DNA of 64,000 nucleotides from sequence record NC_014260.1. One strand, 5' to 3'. The position numbers were made by a program, and so were the translations under genes. The notes under the pieces are model-generated. The model searched no databases. It was not told the origin of the DNA and was given only the letters and a program-made list of their open reading frames with translations. Below, in pieces: positions 2,078 through 40,121 of this stretch. Position 1 is the stretch's first letter. The number at the start of each line of letters is the position of its first letter. The DNA is from Escherichia phage IME08.

Positions 2078-3756
2078 TCCATCACCGTGAATCGTCCAAC
2101 TTTCTTCATTTGAAGATGTTGGCCATAAGCTTGTGGGTCATGGTCTCGGTGAGAGATAATAAACACGTTCGTATCCTCAAGGCTATTCAAGATGGTTGCA
2201 ATGGTCTTAACGCCTTCAGCGTCAGTAGCACTGTCAAATACCTCATCAAGAATTAACGTGCTGATATTAACACCAGATACCTTTGAAGCAATATCACGCC
2301 ATGTAAAAAGTAGTGCGATATCAATACGTGCTTTCTCACCCTGTGAAAATGAAGCATAACTAAAGTCTTCACGTCCACGTGATTTAATCGTCTCATTGAA
2401 CTCTTCATCTAGTGTAAAGACGTAGTCGGCTTCCATAATCTTCAAATAAGAATTTATCTGCTTATTAAAGATAGGAATGTATTTCTTAATAATGGAGCCT
2501 TTAATACCCGTGTCCTTCAACATTTCTGTCAGAATTCCACGATGATATTTTTCCATTACCAAGGACGATTTGGTAGAGACGATTTTATCAAGCTCTGCTT
2601 GAAGCGCGGCAATCTCTTCGGCATTACTTACGAACTCAGCAGCTGCTTGGTCGATTAATACTTTAACTTTTTTAGCTTTCTCTACAGCAGTAATGGCTTG
2701 TTGCTTATGAGTAGCTATCTGAGATTTAATAGCCAGCGCTTTATTACGTTGTTCGGTTACTTGGTCCTTAATGAGCTTGAGTTCTTGGTACTGCTCATTA
2801 ATCTTATCCAAAGATTTTTGAAGTTCAAAGTTCTTATCCTTAATTTTAGTAAGGATATTTCCATGCTCTTCCAATCCTTGCATACATGTAGGACAACTAC
2901 CACCGGTTTCGTATAATTTCACAACCTTAGTAAAGGTTGCCATATCATTCTTGATTGCAAATCCTTTATTGCTCAGGTCACTCATAGAGTTGCTAGGGTC
3001 ATCATCGACGATGACATTGAGTAATTCATCAGTCAGTTTTTCTATATTGCCCTTCGCAGTCCTGGCTTCTTTAACCAGCTCATCGTACATTAACTGTAGA
3101 CGTGCTGCGTTCTCGCCGGATAATTTACGCTGACGTTCTTCGTTGTCATTATAAATTTTAATTTGCTGGGTAATAGAATCCTGTTTAACGTCGATTACCT
3201 GGATTTGGCTATTAGTCTCACGAATCAAAGATTTGTTCAACTTGTCCATATCCGCTAATACAGAAACCTCTAACAGGTCTTCCACAAGCTTTCGGCGCGC
3301 AGGGGTCGACAAACCCATGAAAGGGGTATACCCTGCTGTACCAAGTACGACAATCTGTTTGAAACTGGCATATGACATTCCGATAAGCTGTTCAAATTCT
3401 GCTTGGAAGTCTTTACTGCTGGCAGATTCATCAAGACGTTCACCGCCACAAGTGATTTCAAAAATATTGGGTTTTTGCCCGCGCTTGATATAGTATTCTT
3501 TGCCATCATATTCCATCCACAGTTCGACCAAAAGGTCTTTCTTATTACTTGAGTTAATCAACTGCCCTTTCTTAACATCACGAAAAGGCTTACCAAACAG
3601 AGCAAATGTAACGGCTTCAAGGAACGTAGATTTACCAGCGCCATTTTTACCGGTGACTAAGGTCTTTTGGACCTTGTCAAGTTGGATTGTAATAGGTTGC
3701 TGGCCTACCGACATAATATTTTTATACGTTACTTTCTTTAACTTAAACGTTTTCAT
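2074..3756 (-). CDS. 46: Recombination endonuclease subunit gp46 (Rad50/SbcC-like ATPase)
   Basis: 560 aa, same length as T4 gp46; N-terminus MKTFKLKKVTYKNIMSVGQQPITIQLDKVQKTLVTGKNGAGKST (Walker A), C-terminal LILDEVFD signature region. Confidence 0.92.
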   Translation of the reverse strand: MKTFKLKKVTYKNIMSVGQQPITIQLDKVQKTLVTGKNGAGKSTFLEAVTFALFGKPFRDVKKGQLINSSNKKDLLVELWMEYDGKEYYIKRGQKPNIFEITCGGERLDESASSKDFQAEFEQLIGMSYASFKQIVVLGTAGYTPFMGLSTPARRKLVEDLLEVSVLADMDKLNKSLIRETNSQIQVIDVKQDSITQQIKIYNDNEERQRKLSGENAARLQLMYDELVKEARTAKGNIEKLTDELLNVIVDDDPSNSMSDLSNKGFAIKNDMATFTKVVKLYETGGSCPTCMQGLEEHGNILTKIKDKNFELQKSLDKINEQYQELKLIKDQVTEQRNKALAIKSQIATHKQQAITAVEKAKKVKVLIDQAAAEFVSNAEEIAALQAELDKIVSTKSSLVMEKYHRGILTEMLKDTGIKGSIIKKYIPIFNKQINSYLKIMEADYVFTLDEEFNETIKSRGREDFSYASFSQGEKARIDIALLFTWRDIASKVSGVNISTLILDEVFDSATDAEGVKTIATILNSLEDTNVFIISHRDHDPQAYGQHLQMKKVGRFTVME

Positions 3757-23575: not shown

Positions 23576-24014
23576 AATCTACCACCACTAAATTGATATC
23601 AGGAGTAAACAAATTAATCAATTGATAAACCTTGTCCCAATCACCACCAGCAATACCACAACCAATGCGAGGAATATAAATTCTTGGTTTAAACAAAAGA
23701 CCTTTTGCGGTACGGTTTAATTCTATCATACAGTTTACTAAAGCACCATAATCAAGATTAGGGCCTGGCTCGTATTGCGTATAAAGATTATAGCAAATTT
23801 GCCCATTATTACCTGTGGCTTGAGTAAATGTGCCAAGTTTTTCTACACCGCCTAAATAAGTGGTTTTATCGATAGCGAGAATAGGCGGATAAGCCTTAGC
23901 CAATTGTCCGGCTACACCTGAACCCATTGTATGGAAACAATTGCACCCGTGTGCAACATTATTACCTTGAAGAAACAGGGCGACGATATCGCCCTTAATA
24001 TAATCAATAATCAT
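23547..24014 (-). CDS. Macro-domain-like protein (possible ADP-ribose binding/processing)
   Basis: 155 aa; GNNVAHGCNCFHTMGSGVAGQL resembles the macro-domain N...GGG(V/I).G.I loop; assignment by motif only. Confidence 0.4.
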   Translation of the reverse strand: MIIDYIKGDIVALFLQGNNVAHGCNCFHTMGSGVAGQLAKAYPPILAIDKTTYLGGVEKLGTFTQATGNNGQICYNLYTQYEPGPNLDYGALVNCMIELNRTAKGLLFKPRIYIPRIGCGIAGGDWDKVYQLINLFTPDINLVVVDYESPLPTSV

Positions 24015-24367
24015 TTAGAATTTAATCCTCGGTTGTACGAGTCAACGAGTCTGTCTACCATAGACGCGCACATTTCTTTGTACTTTTTATCAGATGGAAC
24101 ACATTCAGTAACGTTTAGACGTTGCTCGTACCTTTTAGAAAGAGTTTTCTCTTTCATTCTGCGATGCTCTACGTCGTTCTGTCCATCTTTAAAAGCCGCT
24201 GTGATTTTTGAACTGAATTCGATAACGCATTCAGTATTACTTGGATGACAATAATCTTTTGCTGTGCGGGTAGCATACTCAACAATTGAATTATTGCTAT
24301 CATCAACTTGTGACGCTAATACTCCCGGAGCTATCAACATAAGCGCTATAGTCATCTGCTTAATCAT
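24011..24367 (-). CDS. Secreted/periplasmic hypothetical protein
   Basis: 118 aa with N-terminal signal peptide MIKQMTIALMLIAPGVLASQ. Confidence 0.45.
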   Translation of the reverse strand: MIKQMTIALMLIAPGVLASQVDDSNNSIVEYATRTAKDYCHPSNTECVIEFSSKITAAFKDGQNDVEHRRMKEKTLSKRYEQRLNVTECVPSDKKYKEMCASMVDRLVDSYNRGLNSK

Positions 24368-24907
24368 TTAGTATACCGCCTCAAACATCTTTTTAGATTT
24401 TAGGTAATTGGCCTTTTCTAGAACTTCAGAAGCATACTTACTGCCTGCTTTGACGTTCCAGCCCGCATTATAAGAAGCAATCGCTTTTCTCAGGTCACCT
24501 TTGTGAACATCAATCCAATAAGACAGCTCAATGTAGGCCCAAGAGGCACTGTTCTGTCGTTTTTGGACCATGCGAATTATTTCTTTGTCTGACATCTTCC
24601 AACCTACCTGTTGAACACGACTTCTTAACGTAGGCAAGTAATTTTGGAACATGCCATAAGCATGGTGCTTATCTTTATTTAAACCCTGATTAATTCCGGC
24701 AGATGATTCCTGCCATAGTAATCCGGCCATGATATATCCTAATCCTTTTTGATTAGGGTTTTCTTTGAACTTTCCCGACTTTTGGTATTGTTCACCGAAA
24801 GCATACGCATAATGTAAATTATCGAGTTGTTCATTACTGAAAGTAGGCTCTACGCTATGGGCAGACATACTAACTGTCAATAGTAAAGTGGCTAATACTT
24901 TTTTCAT
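24368..24907 (-). CDS. Secreted lytic transglycosylase (SLT domain)
   Basis: 179 aa; signal peptide MKKVLATLLLTVSMSAHS; SLT motifs WQESS (catalytic Glu-Ser), AYGMFQ, SYNAG. Confidence 0.6.
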   Translation of the reverse strand: MKKVLATLLLTVSMSAHSVEPTFSNEQLDNLHYAYAFGEQYQKSGKFKENPNQKGLGYIMAGLLWQESSAGINQGLNKDKHHAYGMFQNYLPTLRSRVQQVGWKMSDKEIIRMVQKRQNSASWAYIELSYWIDVHKGDLRKAIASYNAGWNVKAGSKYASEVLEKANYLKSKKMFEAVY

Positions 24908-24919
24908 GAGACCTCATTA

Positions 24920-25378
24920 TTAAAGATAGATTACTTTCGTGCTGGTTTTACCTTCTAAACGTTTAGAGTTAACAAATGCCATACGACATTTAAGGGAATA
25001 TCCTTTATCAGGATGTTTACGGTCTACGGTCATACCTAGCCATAAGGTTTTATCGGTAATTTCGAGACGCAATGGACGATACACTTTACCAGGGACAATT
25101 TCGGATTCTACATCAGGCAGAGGTTCCTGGATTAAGAATTCATGGATTTCTTTAACATGGTTATGGAGTTGCTTGAATAAAGCAAAAACGTATTTTTCGT
25201 CGATTTCACGTTGGATAGCACGGTCCAACAAATGATTAGAGTACTTAATAAAGAAGGCTGGGACTCCGCTCTTAACGGCGGCTTTTTTGATGGACGCATT
25301 CAGTTCGCGGAATTCGGTTTCGAACTGACGACGTAATTTGTTGCGGCGGATGAATACTTCTGAATTAATTTCTGACAT
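24920..25378 (-). CDS. regB: Site-specific endoribonuclease RegB
   Basis: 152 aa (T4 RegB 153); EVFIRRNKLRR.FE.EFR...HLLDRAIQREIDE.YVF.LF matches T4 RegB. Confidence 0.85.
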   Translation of the reverse strand: MSEINSEVFIRRNKLRRQFETEFRELNASIKKAAVKSGVPAFFIKYSNHLLDRAIQREIDEKYVFALFKQLHNHVKEIHEFLIQEPLPDVESEIVPGKVYRPLRLEITDKTLWLGMTVDRKHPDKGYSLKCRMAFVNSKRLEGKTSTKVIYL

Positions 25379-25406
25379 TTTGTAATCTCCTGTAGTTGAT
25401 AGGTTT

Positions 25407-25435
25407 ATAGTATCATGTCTACAGGAGATGTAAAC
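25407..25435 (-). promoter_or_regulatory. T4-type early promoter upstream of regB
   Basis: Minus strand GTTTAC, 17 nt, TACTAT, then AAACCTATCAAC; inverted repeat CCTGTAG/CTACAGG spans the -10. Confidence 0.6.
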
Positions 25436-25439
25436 AGCT

Positions 25440-25649
25440 TTATTCTTGGAATGGGGTAAGTTTTCCAGCAGCTGAACAAATTTCTACCAGTACAGGGTAA
25501 AACTCTTTCACTTGTTCAAGGCGTTGGGCTGCATACTGTACTTCGCCTTCTTCGAGACAAGCCATTTGGTCGTCAAGCAAGTATTTGTGGTAGCCTGTAC
25601 AGGCTTCACCGATGATACGCTGGAAATCTTGTAAACTTTCAATTTTCAT
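25440..25649 (-). CDS. Hypothetical protein
   Basis: Internal Met (MKIESLQDF) of track ORF 25440-25691; start codon overlaps the upstream stop. Confidence 0.4.
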   Translation of the reverse strand: MKIESLQDFQRIIGEACTGYHKYLLDDQMACLEEGEVQYAAQRLEQVKEFYPVLVEICSAAGKLTPFQE

Positions 25650-25927
25650 CAGTATTTTTCCTCGGGTTGGAAAACGGAACGACATGCCCACATGCTTGCT
25701 TCTTTCAAGCGTTCGATTGCCGTACGAATCTGGGCTAGGCGTTCATGGGTGAGGTTGAATTCTTCATCACTCATTTTATCAACACCGGAGCATGTAAAGG
25801 CTTCAACATATTCTTCTTCCAAGGCTTTAAAGATTAACCCTAATCGAACTTCGGCATCTTTAATCGCATTCACTTTACCAATTTTATCGTCGGTATGTGG
25901 CTTATAACCCTTAATATCTTCAATCAT
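25649..25927 (-). CDS. Hypothetical protein (candidate Vs.4/Acb2-like by size and position)
   Basis: 92-aa ORF in the regB-to-denV interval where T4 carries vs.3-vs.8; the assignment is positional only. Confidence 0.4.
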   Translation of the reverse strand: MIEDIKGYKPHTDDKIGKVNAIKDAEVRLGLIFKALEEEYVEAFTCSGVDKMSDEEFNLTHERLAQIRTAIERLKEASMWACRSVFQPEEKY

Positions 25928-26142
25928 TTCACTTCCTCATCAGATGCAATATCGTATTCAACTAAATGAATCCCGTCATATCCGCCACGAACAGAGATAT
26001 ATGTGCTAGGATAAACGGTTTCTTTACCATTCCATTGTCCACCATCCCAACATTCCAAAAAGCCTTGTTCGCCCTGTTCGTGGAACCAGTCAACAAACAT
26101 CTTCAGAGCTTCATCAGAGCCTTCAATTGTCAATTTAGACAT
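25924..26142 (-). CDS. Hypothetical acidic protein
   Basis: 72-aa ORF. Confidence 0.4.
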   Translation of the reverse strand: MSKLTIEGSDEALKMFVDWFHEQGEQGFLECWDGGQWNGKETVYPSTYISVRGGYDGIHLVEYDIASDEEVK

Positions 26143-26431
26143 ATTTCTTCCAGTCAGAAATCATATGAATCTCTTGGTCATAAGTTAAGAGACTGCGAGT
26201 AATAATACCCTTACAAGGCCCTGAGATGAACTCGAGGGTGAAGTAAGGAACTTGTTTCATTAATCGGATGCTTGGGGCGTGGCATCTAAAACGAGAGCCC
26301 TTAAAGGGCCCTGTCATGAATACATATTCTAATGGGTAAAAATAAGCATATTCAAAATTCATGGTAAGGTCCTCTCTTCGAACCTTACGTGAGAAATAAC
26401 AGAACTCAAAAAGTTCTTCATCAGTCATCAT
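26135..26431 (-). CDS. Hypothetical protein
   Basis: 98-aa ORF. Confidence 0.4.
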   Translation of the reverse strand: MMTDEELFEFCYFSRKVRREDLTMNFEYAYFYPLEYVFMTGPFKGSRFRCHAPSIRLMKQVPYFTLEFISGPCKGIITRSLLTYDQEIHMISDWKKYV

Positions 26432-26973
26432 TGCATTCCTATCACAAAAAACAGAGGACGTGTGGTTTGATTGGTTTCTTCACATGATGCACGGCAGCAA
26501 TGTTGCACCACCTTTATGTGGGCATCATAAATCTTATCCATATCGGGTGTTTTAACAGGCTCATCAATTATATACAGAACCCGTGAAAGTGATAATCCGC
26601 GGAATTTGCATGCAGTATTACCAATAAAACTACGAACAGAATCAATGTACAAACGGTACTTAATACTTTCTGTATGGTTATTAAAATATTCCTTTCGAAT
26701 AGCTGATGCGGAGACATTAGCATAAGCGCTATTTTGCGATAGAACAATAACAGTACCGCCATCAGCTAACCATTCCGTAGCAAAAATGGATACTGCTTTA
26801 GTTTTACCGGATTGGCGCCCACCATCAAGTTTTAAGGTGCAGCATTCTTTAAACAGGGTTTGTGAATCAGGTACATAAAACCCACTATTACAAATGTGTT
26901 CTACTCTAGCATCAGAATGGTTTGCAAAAGCATTCATCAGGGATAGATAACTACCGGTTAAAAACGTTTTCAT
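26428..26973 (-). CDS. Small P-loop NTPase
   Basis: 181 aa; Walker A GGRQSGKTKA and Walker B-like LYIIDEP. Confidence 0.5.
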   Translation of the reverse strand: MKTFLTGSYLSLMNAFANHSDARVEHICNSGFYVPDSQTLFKECCTLKLDGGRQSGKTKAVSIFATEWLADGGTVIVLSQNSAYANVSASAIRKEYFNNHTESIKYRLYIDSVRSFIGNTACKFRGLSLSRVLYIIDEPVKTPDMDKIYDAHIKVVQHCCRASCEETNQTTRPLFFVIGMQ

Positions 26974-27137
26974 AATTGTCTCTTTTTAAGTGGTGGGGCC
27001 ATTCCTTGGCACATAATTCGTCCATGTATCCGTATGTAAACCCTTTACCGCACTTGGGCTCGACCTTATTACAGGTAGGGAAAGGTCCATCACTCAGAGG
27101 ACGCGACGTTCATGAGGAGAGGGCCGGCTTGCCTTTA

Positions 27138-27437
27138 TTAGAAAGAACCAGAACCTTTAATTGTGTTCTGGCGACCTTTATTTTCTAATTCAGAGTGGTC
27201 GATTTCATATGCTTGTGCTACGCCAAAGGCCTTTTTAACTTTAGCTAAAGAACCTTTAGATGTAACAATATTAAAGGTATTGCCTTTGGTAAAATCAACC
27301 AAATCGACTTGTACACCCTGTTTACCGAGGCTTGCTACAATAGCATCAACATATTCTTGGTCTAAATTGCCTTGAACTCCAATTTGAAATGCTTTAGGAG
27401 CTTTGGCTTCTGTAATAAATTCTTGATAAGTTTTCAT
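27138..27437 (-). CDS. ipII: Internal head protein (IPII-like) with capsid targeting sequence
   Basis: 99 aa; N-terminal MKTYQEFITEA capsid targeting sequence; position next to denV and e. Confidence 0.7.
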   Translation of the reverse strand: MKTYQEFITEAKAPKAFQIGVQGNLDQEYVDAIVASLGKQGVQVDLVDFTKGNTFNIVTSKGSLAKVKKAFGVAQAYEIDHSELENKGRQNTIKGSGSF

Positions 27438-27461
27438 ATTATTCCTTAAGTTGATAGAAGT

Positions 27462-27491
27462 ATTCTATCACGGATTTAATTAAGCGTAAAT
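27462..27491 (-). promoter_or_regulatory. Weak early-promoter-like element upstream of ipII
   Basis: Minus strand ATTTAC, 18 nt, TAGAAT, then ACTTCTATCAAC. Confidence 0.3.
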
Positions 27492-27896
27492 AGCCTTGCC
27501 ATAATGTTTGTACCAGGTAGGACGCTGTGCAATTTTTTCGTCCAAACGGGCCTGAGATATAGCAATAGAAGCTTCGTGGGGAACATAATCGCCACGGAAT
27601 TCCTGAGGAATATCACTAATGTCCTGGACTGTAGTATCCTTGATATTAAAGCCACGTTTTAAACATTCGGCTATAAGCTCGATTTGACGCTTACGTAAAA
27701 ATTCAAGCTTATCATAAAAGAAAGTAACATGGCCTGTACCAAGGATAAAAGTAGAGCTAATTTTAAAATCACGAACACGTTTACCATTAGCAACATGCTT
27801 ACGAACTGCACCGAAAACACGTGGTAATTCGCGATATTCAGCCATTAAGTGTTGGTCGGCCAATTCAGATACTAAGGTAAGGTTAATACGAGTCAT
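27480..27896 (-). CDS. denV: Endonuclease V (pyrimidine-dimer DNA glycosylase) DenV
   Basis: From [47 protein letters not shown] the sequence is nearly identical to T4 endonuclease V (138 aa). Confidence 0.92.
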
Positions 27897-27956
27897 TTTA
27901 GTGTTCTCCATGTTTGTGTGAGAACACTATATCACAGCTATTGTAAAAGTAAACTG

Positions 27957-28259
27957 TTATTTACCTTTAATTGCTTTAGCTGCTTCGGTAGCCGCTTGCT
28001 GAAGGTCATCCATAGACATACCAAACTTAGAAGCAAAGTTATCAATTTTCTTTTCGACAGAATTCAAAGGCTTGGCCTGTTTACCTTCATTAGCGCCCGG
28101 GAGAGCGAGAATACGCTCTTTGTCAATATAAAGGCTTACAAGTTTCTTACGGTCTTTATCTGGCAAATCATGAAATGAATGGGCCTTTTTATTTACAGCG
28201 GCTTCTAATTTACCTGCGGTTACGCGGGCTTCAGTGATAAATTCATTATAAGTTTTCAT
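27957..28259 (-). CDS. Internal head protein with capsid targeting sequence
   Basis: 100 aa, N-terminal [11 protein letters not shown]; lies between denV and e where T4 carries ipIII. Confidence 0.65.
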
Positions 28260-28740
28260 ATGCTTTCCAAGTACCTGTTTTAAATGTTGAAATCACGCGC
28301 TTAGCACGATTAGGAGTTTGTTTATACCAACGGGATTGAGCCAGGTTAACTGCCGCATCGTCCCAACGTTTCTGTTGGAGCATACGTAAAGAGTTAGTGA
28401 ACCCAGCTACACCTGCTTCACCCATCTGGAAGACCATGTTAATTAAAGCACAACGACGAACTTCGTCCAGTACATCATAAACAGGTTTCAATTTAGGATT
28501 ACGCAGAATAGCTCTACGAGCATTTTCAACCGATCGGTTAAAGAGTTGTTCAGCTTCAGCCATAGTAATACGACCGTTGCAAACCCGGCCCATAAGCTTA
28601 TCAAGTTCGGCACGAGCAACATCTTTTGAAGGGTTTTTGGTAATCAACTGGCCAATCCCAATAGTCCAATAACCTTCGGTGTCTTTATAAAGATTTAAAT
28701 CAAGACCTTCGTCTTGACGTAACATATCAAAAATATCCAT
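28246..28740 (-). CDS. e: Lysozyme (endolysin) e, glycoside hydrolase family 24
   Basis: 164 aa, same length as T4 lysozyme; [35 protein letters not shown]...[32 protein letters not shown]. Confidence 0.93.
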
Positions 28741-28742
28741 AA

Positions 28743-28771
28743 TACCTCCTGAGTATAGGAGGTATTTATAT
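28743..28771 (-). promoter_or_regulatory. SD-sequestering hairpin plus late promoter for gene e
   Basis: 8-bp inverted repeat (UACCUCCU / AGGAGGUA) pairs the SD of e; minus-strand TATAAATA abuts and overlaps the 5' arm. Confidence 0.6.
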
Positions 28772-29220
28772 CAAAAGAGCGAATCTAAAACCTTAAACAT
28801 CGACTTACCCATGACATATTCCCATTGTGGACGTTTAATCAAGGCAAACGCATCGAATTCAGGAATCGTGCGACCGTCAGGGAACGTATGGTAAGCCGTA
28901 CATTTGCAATTCTTGAACTGCTCGTGTTCCACAGGCACCGTATATAAGAACAGATGTAGATTCTTATTGCTTGAATATTTGAACTCACCTAGGTCTTTCA
29001 GGAACGCAGGATCGTATGCTGTGAATCCAATCTCTTCTTCGGTTTCACGCATTGCCGCTTGAATAGGCTCTTCGCCTGGTTCGACATGACCTTTAGGAAT
29101 GTCCCATTTATGACGCATATTCTCTGGATTACGAGAGCCTGTTACACGCCCCATGACCAGTTCTTTATCAACAGTCATGAACAAAATACCTGCCGATAAT
29201 TCCTTAGCTTTCTTACTCAT
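28771..29220 (-). CDS. nudE: Nudix hydrolase NudE
   Basis: Nudix box GHVEPGEEPIQAAMRETEEEIGF; start set at MSKKAKEL (about 150 aa, T4 NudE 151); position next to e. Confidence 0.75.
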   Translation of the reverse strand: MSKKAKELSAGILFMTVDKELVMGRVTGSRNPENMRHKWDIPKGHVEPGEEPIQAAMRETEEEIGFTAYDPAFLKDLGEFKYSSNKNLHLFLYTVPVEHEQFKNCKCTAYHTFPDGRTIPEFDAFALIKRPQWEYVMGKSMFKVLDSLF

Positions 29221-36548: not shown

Positions 36549-37166
36549 TTATTTACGGGTCTTTTCGAACTGGGCCGCGTCACCAGCCAGACGACGAGCT
36601 TGACGAAGTTTGTTGTCGATTTCTTCGCGCATAGGCTGGGTATACTTAAGGCCTTCAACCGTCAGATAGAGGCGATAAAGGTCTGGGGTGTCTAGGTTGT
36701 TAATGTGCTGTCCGTTACGAAGAGTATTGAATTCACGAACAAGGTGTTTAGTTTCGGATTCGATTTCAGAAACCAAAGAAGCCAGTTGATTATATTTTTT
36801 AACTATAGTGCTGGTGTCAAACTTGATTTTAGGTTTAGGAGCTTCTTTTACCGGTTCGGCTTTAGGCGTCGGTTTCGGCGCTGCAACTTTGGCCTGGGCT
36901 GCAGGTTTAGCAACAGGAGCTTTAGCTGGTTTAGCAGGCTTAGTAGCGCCGCCAGCTACGATATCTTTAAAAGCTTTAGAAGCTTTGTAATATTCTTTCT
37001 GGTTACTAGTATCAAAACCATACATATCATAAACGTTTTTAAAGAATTCGGTGGTGGTTTTAGTCCCAGAAATTTTATCATAAGCCGCTTGCCACATATC
37101 TTTAGTCATGCGGACGCCGGCTTCGGTCAGAACGCTTTCGTTCAAAAATTCATTGTAAGTTTTCAT
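36549..37166 (-). CDS. Internal head protein (IPIII-like, basic Lys/Ala/Pro-rich) with capsid targeting sequence
   Basis: 205 aa; N-terminal [11 protein letters not shown]; Ala/Lys/Pro-rich basic middle region; its own late promoter upstream. Confidence 0.6.
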   Translation of the reverse strand: MKTYNEFLNESVLTEAGVRMTKDMWQAAYDKISGTKTTTEFFKNVYDMYGFDTSNQKEYYKASKAFKDIVAGGATKPAKPAKAPVAKPAAQAKVAAPKPTPKAEPVKEAPKPKIKFDTSTIVKKYNQLASLVSEIESETKHLVREFNTLRNGQHINNLDTPDLYRLYLTVEGLKYTQPMREEIDNKLRQARRLAGDAAQFEKTRK

Positions 37167-37233: not shown

Positions 37234-37401
37234 TAACCTAGGGTAACCTTGTCGGGGTTCCACCTGCTAGGCAAGTGTTCGGTGCGCCGTTTCGGCTGTG
37301 AGATAAGGGACTTTAAGAGGAACTCATGTACGCCTTAAAGTCGGGTCTTATTCAGGGAACTTCAGTCCGACGACTTACCGGTAGCGACCCGGTTTCTTGT
37401 T

Positions 37402-37477
37402 TGGCCGAGACAGTAGGGATCGAACCTACGACCCAGGACTTAGAAGGTCCTTGCTCTTCCTTCTGAGCTATGCCTCG
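37402..37477 (-). tRNA. tRNA-Arg (anticodon UCU)
   Basis: 76 nt cloverleaf folded by hand: acceptor CGAGGCA/TGTCTCG, D-stem GCTC/GAGC, anticodon stem AGGAC/GTCCT with loop CTTCTAA, T-arm GTAGG-TTCGATC-CCTAC, encoded CCA. Confidence 0.8.
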
Positions 37478-38659: not shown

Positions 38660-38932
38660 TTATTTTAAATAAATTGCATACTTTTTATAACCAGCCGTTT
38701 CGTGACGCAGCCCTTTTTCATTAGCAAAACGTTCAATATTGTTAATTTGATTCTGGTCGAGTTCTGAAGTATCAAATACAAAAAAGTTTCGCTTATTGCC
38801 TAAAGTTACATGATTAGTCAAATCGATGTTATAGAGATGATTTATATTATCAATCATAGTCTTAACAGATTTGTTAATTTTTACTTCTTCATTAAGAATA
38901 GATTCAGCGATAAATTCTTGATATGTTTTCAT
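38660..38932 (-). CDS. Internal-protein-like protein with capsid targeting sequence
   Basis: 90 aa, N-terminal MKTYQEFIAES. Confidence 0.55.
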   Translation of the reverse strand: MKTYQEFIAESILNEEVKINKSVKTMIDNINHLYNIDLTNHVTLGNKRNFFVFDTSELDQNQINNIERFANEKGLRHETAGYKKYAIYLK

Positions 38933-38934
38933 TT

Positions 38935-39159
38935 TTATTCAGCGCCAGCGGCTTTCAAAAGTTTTTTAAGATTAGCGGTGCCTTGAGCAGAAAATGTGAC
39001 CTTGCCGTCTTTTTCGCCGATGCTCCCGGTCAATTTAGCGAGCTTATCACTAGGGACTTTTTTAAAATCAGCCAATGAACCGTCAAAGGTTTTTGTAACA
39101 ACCGGCAGTTGGTCTTCGTGTTTTTTAGCTTCGGTAATAAATTCTTGATAAGTTTTCAT
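38935..39159 (-). CDS. Internal-protein-like protein with capsid targeting sequence
   Basis: 74 aa, N-terminal MKTYQEFITEA. Confidence 0.55.
   Translation of the reverse strand: MKTYQEFITEAKKHEDQLPVVTKTFDGSLADFKKVPSDKLAKLTGSIGEKDGKVTFSAQGTANLKKLLKAAGAE

Positions 39160-39237: not shown

Positions 39238-40121
<884 letters not shown>

Follow-up and report, generated by a model that had tools for sequence, protein, structure and literature searches.

The vs.8-to-vs.3 gene cluster of Escherichia phage IME08, with a Vs.4/Acb2 homologue, a predicted P-loop ATPase and a conserved upstream element

Which genes fill the interval upstream of regB in a JS98-like, T4-type phage, and is one of them a sponge for the cyclic nucleotide signals of the cyclic oligonucleotide-based antiphage signalling system (CBASS)? 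We examined this question in 64,000 nucleotides (nt) of Escherichia phage IME08 (NC_014260.1), referred to here as the window, where five minus-strand open reading frames (ORFs) of 69, 92, 72, 98 and 181 amino acids occupy positions 25440-26973. An earlier note, made from the letters alone, had listed these ORFs, had proposed the 92-residue protein as a candidate Vs.4/Acb2-type sponge, and had described the 181-residue protein as a compact P-loop NTPase. The best explanation of the five genes as a whole, to which we give a probability of about 85%, is that they are the known vs.8-to-vs.3 cluster, with a Vs.4 sponge and with Vs.8 as an accessory ATPase. Directly upstream of vs.8 lies a conserved element that may be a structured RNA, and this is considered after the genes themselves.

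Gene identities and the Vs.4/Acb2 protein

The identities of the five ORFs were determined using blastp against T4 and JS98 proteins, PHROG searches with the proteins of the window and of T4, and synteny with T4, JS98 and ABTNLsp5. In the order in which they would be read, they are:

26428..26973, minus strand: vs.8, 181 amino acids; 63.5% identical to T4 Vs.8 residues 41-219; PHROG 1488, E=3e-71
26135..26431, minus strand: vs.7, 98 amino acids; 48% identical to T4 Vs.7 and 98% to JS98 Vs.7; PHROG 2049, E=1.8e-45
25924..26142, minus strand: ORF of the JS98 orf109 / RB32 ORF119c type, 72 amino acids; 90% identical to JS98 orf109; PHROG 1986, E=7.9e-35
25649..25927, minus strand: vs.4/acb2, 92 amino acids; 67% identical to T4 Vs.4 and 98% to JS98 Vs.4; PHROG 717, E=1.3e-27
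25440..25649, minus strand: vs.3, 69 amino acids; 44% identical to T4 Vs.3 residues 25-92; PHROG 2037, E=2.9e-29

All five ORFs match phage protein families (PHROGs 2037, 717, 1986, 2049 and 1488, from the 69- to the 181-residue protein; E 3e-29 to 3e-71), and homologues of each are present in hundreds of T4-type phage records. Vs.8, Vs.7 and Vs.3 share PHROGs 1488, 2049 and 2037 with their T4 namesakes, show reciprocal similarity to them and keep the T4 gene order, as orthologues do. Searches of NCBIfam and PADLOC returned nothing meaningful for any of the five proteins. The best DNA matches of the region are Dhakavirus (JS98-like) T4-type phages, with ABTNLsp5 and vB_EcoM_005 at 96% and JS98 at 93%, and all genes of the region are on the minus strand. 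Successive ORFs overlap by 1, 4, 8 and 4 nt, counted from the 69- to the 181-residue ORF. Since starts and stops overlap at all junctions, the five ORFs form one compact unit that appears to be translationally coupled and has the usual layout of a single operon of that kind. We take the vs.8-vs.7-orf72-vs.4-vs.3 set to be the early-gene cluster of a JS98-like phage, transcribed on the minus strand towards regB. This part of the finding is already-annotated biology, as JS98 has carried annotations of vs.4, vs.7 and vs.8 since 2007 and the characterisation of Vs.4 dates from 2023.

The ORFs have the sizes and the strand that the earlier note had given them, and T4 does hold vs.3-vs.8 in the corresponding interval. 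The comparison with T4 was correct for Vs.3, Vs.4, Vs.7 and Vs.8 but fails between Vs.4 and Vs.7, where T4 vs.6 (encoding a GrcA-like glycyl-radical protein) has no counterpart and the 72-residue ORF occupies the place of vs.5 and vs.6. Similarly, the block had been placed between regB and ipII; regB is indeed one flank, but the gene on the other side (27138-27437) belongs to PHROG 2667 and the true ipII is found further on, at 27957-28259. The note had also named the lack of any homology to Vs.4/Acb2 among the five proteins as grounds for giving up the sponge proposal; what we found instead is that the 92-residue protein aligns with the solved structure of T4 Vs.4 (PDB 7UQ2) from query residues 1-92 to chain residues 2-89 with E=1.2e-30, and matches the Pfam family PF24729 (Acb2_Tad1_hairpin) at 59.5 bits (E=3.6e-16), well over the cut-off of 27 bits. 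PHROG 717, to which it belongs, is the family that Jenson et al. used for Vs.4 homologues (PMC10097602). By sequence, the 92-residue protein is a member of the Vs.4/Acb2 family.

T4 Vs.4 is a hexamer with three bound molecules of cyclic GMP-AMP (cGAMP) and a dissociation constant of ~30 nM (Jenson et al. 2023, PMC10097602). In the same study the cGAMP contacts were described as stacking between Y8 and F82 together with contacts from Y8, H11, K23 and R79, and mutations at L29, A66, A73, A77, T12 and S74 abolished function (PMC10097602). A residue-by-residue mapping showed that the six residues of the cyclic dinucleotide pocket are all identical in the IME08 protein (Y8, H11, K23, S78, R83 and F86, corresponding to T4 Y8, H11, K23, S74, R79 and F82), as are the five residues of the hexamer interface (L29, F33, A70, A77 and A81, corresponding to T4 L29, F33, A66, A73 and A77), and that T12 is kept as well. 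Conservation relative to T4 is bipartite, with 31/33 residues identical in the N-terminal part and 19/23 in the C-terminal part, out of a total of 62/87 aligned residues. The two proteins are also alike in size (~90 amino acids) and in genomic position, upstream of vs.3 and regB. Since the deposited JS98 Vs.4 is 98% identical to the 92-residue protein, this is not a new sequence type.

Acb2 of Pseudomonas phage PaMx33 belongs to the same Pfam family and sponges cyclic di- and trinucleotides, and by analogy the same hexameric sponge mechanism would be expected of the IME08 protein. PaMx33 Acb2 needs R67 and T74 to bind cyclic triadenylate (cA3), and T4 Acb2 does not bind cA3 (Cao et al., PMC10312549). 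When mapped via T4 D61 and T68, the equivalents of R67 and T74 in the 92-residue protein are A65 and E72. As the PaMx33 trinucleotide residues are absent, we predict that the protein is a dinucleotide-only sponge like T4 Vs.4, with no trinucleotide binding expected, as for T4 Acb2. If it behaves as T4 Vs.4 does, it would form a hexamer that buries three molecules of 3',3'-cGAMP (or related cyclic dinucleotides) at its dimer interfaces, and the sequestration of cGAMP would starve CBASS effectors of their activating signal. In this it would complement the Acb1 phosphodiesterase of the same phage, for which a 2H-phosphoesterase homologue (gp57B; Pfam Acb1, 197 bits) is present at 39444-39899 on the minus strand.

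The three smaller companions of vs.4 and vs.8 can be described more briefly. The start of vs.7 overlaps the stop of vs.8 by 4 nt (ATGA), and in almost all T4-type loci with enough sequence vs.7 is the gene downstream of vs.8; homologues of Vs.7 carry the precomputed Pfam tag PF26834. An AlphaFold2 (AF2) model of Vs.7 from a 5-sequence alignment was unusable, with a predicted local distance difference test score (pLDDT) of 43 and a predicted template modelling score (pTM) of 0.30. For the 72-residue protein, residues 1-29 of T4 Vs.5 match the N-terminal part of PHROG 1986 (E=2e-5), and since the match is limited to these first 29 residues, T4 Vs.5 appears to be a relative that was truncated or has diverged. 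Translation of vs.3 gives 69 amino acids from its ATG and 83 from an upstream GTG; the ATG overlaps the vs.4 stop by 1 nt (TGATG) with a GAGG 8-14 nt upstream, and the PHROG 2037 profile (72 positions) matches T4 Vs.3 only from residue 22. JS98 and ABTNLsp5 lack this gene and have a gap of 62 nt between vs.4 and regB, while phage EcWhh-1 carries a 100% identical copy, making vs.3 a presence/absence polymorphism among close relatives. Biological roles for Vs.3 and the 72-residue protein, as for Vs.7 and Vs.8, are ones that we can at most infer.

Vs.8 and the alternatives to the cluster reading

The description of the 181-residue protein as a compact P-loop NTPase proved accurate, and the protein is the orthologue of T4 Vs.8. 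The two sequences that had been picked out, GGRQSGKTKA and LYIIDEP, are residues 51-60 and 133-139, and they contain an intact Walker A motif (G51-GRQSGKT-58) and an intact Walker B motif (L133-YIIDE-138), the latter preceded by a conserved R125-G126. An AF2 model built on a 12-sequence alignment (pLDDT 82.6, pTM 0.84) has an alpha/beta core of five parallel strands, in which the P-loop follows strand 1 and Walker B lies on strand 4. The additional strand, catalytic glutamate (ASCE)/RecA-like class of P-loop proteins is therefore indicated by the Walker motifs at the level of sequence and by the fold at the level of the model, and we predict that Vs.8 is a stand-alone RecA-like P-loop domain. 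Both GRQxGK and the Walker B glutamate E138 are nearly invariant across 34 Vs.8 representatives, which argues for a working ATPase; with the complete catalytic set (Walker A lysine and Walker B Asp-Glu), Vs.8 most likely binds and hydrolyses ATP. Vs.8 has its motifs in common with T4 Vs.8, and in both phages the gene lies upstream of vs.7 and overlaps it, while the 40-residue N-terminal extension annotated in T4 is absent here.

The Vs.8 family is very small. A word-indexed search recovered 24 clusters and an exhaustive hidden Markov model (HMM) search recovered 44 representatives among 1.84 billion proteins, nearly all of them stand-alone proteins of ~160-185 amino acids. Fold matches in BFVD are small uncharacterised proteins from many large myoviruses, and a sequence search of the PDB gave spurious weak matches only. 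We found no literature on the function of Vs.8 or Vs.7, with 'vs.8' mostly matching 'vs. 8' in clinical papers.

The arrangement of the Vs.8 motifs (GRQxGK[TS], and RG ~10 residues before hhhhDE) most closely resembles the ATPase core of terminase large subunits. The best Pfam match is Terminase_6N at 18.3 bits, below the cut-off of 22, and hhalign placed Vs.8 residues 51-149 on T4 gp17 residues 160-267 (E=6.7e-4, probability 27%), pairing GGRQSGKT with SRQLGKT, FRG with VRG and LYIIDE with MIYIDE. Among the 34 representatives there were 16 sub-threshold Terminase_6N matches and 21 AAA_14 matches. Vs.8 ends at residue 181, directly after the last core strand, and the C-terminal RNase-H-like nuclease domain is absent. 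Without a nuclease domain and with a sub-threshold match, Vs.8 is not a terminase; relative to the gp17 N-domain (PDB 2O0H) it also lacks subdomain II, and it has 181 residues compared to 610. Against the RecA1 (DEAD) domains of superfamily 2 (SF2) proteins Mfd, DDX1 and DDX20, Vs.8 shows 8-14% identity and differs in having no second RecA domain, and none of the Q, Ia, Ib and SAT motifs of SF2 were recognised in it. In SF2 enzymes a lone RecA1 domain cannot be a helicase by itself, and so Vs.8, with a single RecA domain, cannot be one.

Close relatives of IME08 carry a different version of this gene. Phages of the IME341, QL01 and VR20 types have flanks 92-97% identical to the window, and DNA similarity to the IME341 and QL01 types stops at 26924 and resumes at 26457. 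The Vs.8 of the IME341/QL01/VR20-type allele has 175 amino acids, is ~39% identical, and keeps GGRQTGKT, YRG and IIIEEP. Judging from these alignments, the body of vs.8 appears to be swapped as a cassette, with two deeply diverged alleles between near-identical flanks. Because of this cassette-like dimorphism and the position of the gene among accessory and counter-defence genes, we suggest, with low confidence, that Vs.8 has a part in the conflict between phage and host, probably together with Vs.7. It would then be an accessory ATPase acting with its co-translated partner, as opposed to a component of core replication or packaging.

Several other explanations of these five genes have to be considered. 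The cluster lies in a hyperplastic region that varies among phages, with vs.3 present or absent and vs.5 and vs.6 replaced, and its ORFs could in principle be chance frames or decayed pseudogenes. The blastp matches to T4 and JS98 and the PHROG matches refute this: all five have strong family matches at intact lengths and are packed with start/stop overlaps, so we consider its chances negligible. A more serious concern is that the 92-residue protein has the Acb2 fold and acts as a sponge, but with a ligand range that has moved away from that of T4 Vs.4, either by gaining a second pocket (for cyclic trinucleotides, 3'-cyclic ADP-ribose (3'cADPR) or 2',3'-c-di-AMP decoys) or by weakened cGAMP binding, with a re-modelled middle helix region as the cause. 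Two points weigh here against the dinucleotide-only prediction. In the middle third of the protein (residues 34-69) only 12/31 positions agree with T4 and 5 residues are inserted, giving a net length difference of 4 residues, and the corresponding part of T4 Acb2 lines a vestigial trinucleotide pocket (PMC10312549). In addition, Acb2 homologues of altered specificity exist, some with ligand ranges shifted to molecules such as 3'cADPR (PMC12393519), which makes the exact ligand spectrum of Vs.4 uncertain and dinucleotide-only binding a prediction. Set against this, every dinucleotide-pocket and interface residue is identical to T4 and the cA3-binding residues are replaced by A65 and E72, and a shifted sponge seems to us unlikely.

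It is also conceivable that Vs.8 is not an enzyme but a terminase-ATPase-like decoy or adaptor that mimics the N-domain of the large terminase, interfering with host sensors that recognise terminase or modulating packaging, with nucleotide binding being purely structural. Its terminase-type motifs and weak similarity to Terminase_6N, PHROG 2 and gp17 would fit such a role, as would a single domain that lacks partner domains and the dimorphic alleles expected under conflict. We think a decoy improbable and favour Vs.8 as an accessory ATPase alongside a T4-like Vs.4 sponge.

The conserved element upstream of vs.8

Conservation is much higher in the spacer upstream of vs.8 than in the surrounding genes. 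Approximately 40 nt of the element within it are almost perfectly common to T4 and the window, compared with 63% identity between the Vs.8 proteins, and a blastn search found the element in 986 phage records, where it is nearly always unannotated. The parts of the putative element are as follows:

26990..27136 (147 nt), minus strand: proposed structured non-coding element, within the 164-nt spacer between the internal-protein gene and vs.8
27132-27136 with 27081-27085, minus strand: helix P1, all 5 pairs of which change on both sides
~27088-27122, minus strand: P2 hairpin, differing in length between T4-type and JS98-type copies
27074-27080 with 27040-27049, minus strand: helix P3, with an AA bulge, enclosing a near-invariant loop
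27050-27073 (24 nt), minus strand: P3 loop, near-invariant
26995-27025, minus strand: 3' segment, conserved

In a gap-free alignment of 31 distinct sequences, the P3 pairs 11:49, 12:48 and 13:46 take 2-5 pair types with 0 unpaired cells. The covariation score for P3 in these 31 sequences is 0.53, versus 0.125 in shuffles and <=0.15 in slid registers, although the aligned sequences are related by descent and the shuffle controls therefore overstate significance. For P1, 5/5 pairs had changed on both sides in a 28-sequence alignment of T4-type copies. The transcribed strand is favoured by U-G pairs and by an orientation that stays the same with respect to vs.8 or to tRNAs. All sequences would allow a further pairing of the P3 loop (GGUC..CC..GUGC) with the 3' segment (GUGC..GG..GGCC), but this pairing is almost invariant, and a pseudoknot is thus neither supported nor refuted.

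Searched with a covariance model, the window contains one copy, which scores 76.9 bits. Rfam 15 had no match to the element at E<=1 on 24000-29000 or at E<=10 on 26940-27170, and no copy was present among 5,426 E. coli genomes. In GTDB representative genomes there were six matches, all of them chance matches inside coding sequence and without the 5' half of the motif. Two simple candidates were rejected: a sigma-70 or T4 early promoter, since T4-type copies do not conserve the -35-like GTTTACA, and a tRNA or anticodon-loop mimic, as ARAGORN gave no prediction and the loop is in the wrong register. No homology to T4 rnaC or rnaD was evident by inspection.

Could the conserved sequence instead be coding, as an N-terminal extension of Vs.8 or a leader peptide? 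T4 Vs.8 is annotated with 219 amino acids starting inside the element, so that codons 1-40 (T4 64,793-64,912) overlap it; JS98 Vs.8 (198 amino acids) is annotated with 17 extra codons; and a mini-ORF, MD(E/N)(L/S)CA.EWP, can be read in several phages. The folding energy also speaks for coding and against RNA structure, as the window copy folded alone does no better than shuffles (z=-0.05). On the other hand, the 17 JS98 codons read part of the element in another frame than T4, both extension frames are broken in the window copy, and across phages the frame in which the conserved nucleotides are read varies or contains stops. A 246-residue database protein (P0029) results from reading through two tandem copies of the element. 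The PHROG 1488 profile begins at T4 Vs.8 residue 43 and most Vs.8 homologues start at MK/RTFLT, which suggests that residues 1-40 of T4 Vs.8 and the 17-residue extension of JS98 are probably annotation artefacts. Two helices with compensatory changes and essentially no mismatches, as well as the presence of the element core beside tRNA genes in phages that lack vs.8, are likewise difficult to reconcile with a coding function. With no conserved reading frame, we rejected the leader peptide and N-terminal extension and regard a coding explanation as highly unlikely, leaving a structured RNA as our preferred reading of the element.

The distribution of the element is wider than that of vs.8. Pattern scans of IMG/VR found the element core CCTGTAAWAAGGTCGAGCNNNAGNGCGGTAA in non-T4 contigs as well, including 46-kb phages, Klebsiella phage KpCHEMY26 (70 kb), an 84-kb phage, a 38-kb contig and rV5-like 138-kb phages. 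These non-T4 copies are on the tRNA-gene strand, ~150-600 nt from tRNA genes and usually upstream of them, and in an Rfam scan of their loci only tRNAs and one group I intron reached the gathering score. In T4-type loci with enough sequence, there is always a Vs.8 homologue whose start follows that of the core motif by 93-150 nt, larger distances being confined to loci with a duplicated element or an inserted internal-protein gene. Such duplications were observed in Klebsiella phage ATCCa, in which copies at locus positions 2490-2630 and 3030-3140 flank an ipII-like gene, and in phage PS49, which has two tandem copies at locus positions 2500-2760. The duplications in ATCCa and PS49 suggest that the element can serve as a recombination boundary for gene cassettes.

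Candidate roles for the element are a cis-acting leader of the vs.8 operon, affecting translation, stability or processing, or a small stable RNA. T4 rnaC and rnaD (species 1 and 2) offer a partial parallel, as they are phage non-coding RNAs of unexplained function near tRNA clusters, as the element is in non-T4 phages; in T4-type phages, by contrast, the element is directly upstream of vs.8 and not at the tRNA cluster. Bringing these observations together, the element may represent a new class of structured phage RNA which, with the dimorphic Vs.8, makes up a module in phage-host conflict, residues 1-40 of T4 Vs.8 being wrongly annotated. In that case a near-invariant ~45-nt core (CCUGUAAWAAGGUCGAGCNNNAGNGCGGUAA) set in covarying helices may have been transferred horizontally among T4-like, rV5-like, 84-kb, 70-kb and 46-kb enterobacterial phages, and it may act as the cis leader of the vs.8-vs.7-(x)-vs.4(acb2) operon in T4-type phages while heading or accompanying tRNA clusters elsewhere. 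We put this combined reading forward tentatively, at somewhat less than even odds.

Neighbouring genes and what the locus may mean

The genes flanking the cluster, together with others in the window that are referred to below, are as follows:

24920-25378, minus strand: regB; Pfam, 231 bits
27138-27437, minus strand: internal-head-protein-family gene; PHROG 2667; 99% identical to JS98 orf112; MKTYxEF(I/L)xE leader at the N-terminus
27480-27911, minus strand: denV; Pfam; 97% identical to T4
27957-28259, minus strand: ipII orthologue, beyond denV; 93% identical to T4 IpII; same N-terminal leader
36549-37166, minus strand: gene with the same N-terminal leader
38660-38932, minus strand: gene with the same N-terminal leader
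38935-39159, minus strand: gene with the same N-terminal leader

The stretch from 27138 to 28740 is a mosaic, in which a JS98 orf112-type gene is followed by denV and then by an ipII orthologue that abuts gene e, without ipIII, and this gene order is unlike that of both T4 and JS98. The internal-protein capsid-targeting leader MKTYxEF(I/L)xE starts at least five minus-strand genes, a sign that the set of internal head proteins has been expanded and shuffled. By inspection, a homologue of rnaD (species 2) is present at ~37275-37400 on the minus strand, downstream of tRNA-Arg (37402-37477) and after a three-tRNA cluster, and rnaC (species 1), which comes next after rnaD in T4, appears to be missing here, again by inspection only.

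With Acb1 and Acb2, IME08 carries both known T4 anti-CBASS proteins, as T4 itself does, and should evade most cGAMP-type CBASS systems. Vs.8 would be a minimal, terminase-like single-domain ATPase and is a reasonable candidate for a counter-defence or defence-trigger function. The element upstream of it has support from covariation, is outside Rfam, is unannotated in ~1000 phage genomes and is probably translated in error in the T4 reference annotation; if functional, it would be a new class of phage RNA in the best-studied phage family.

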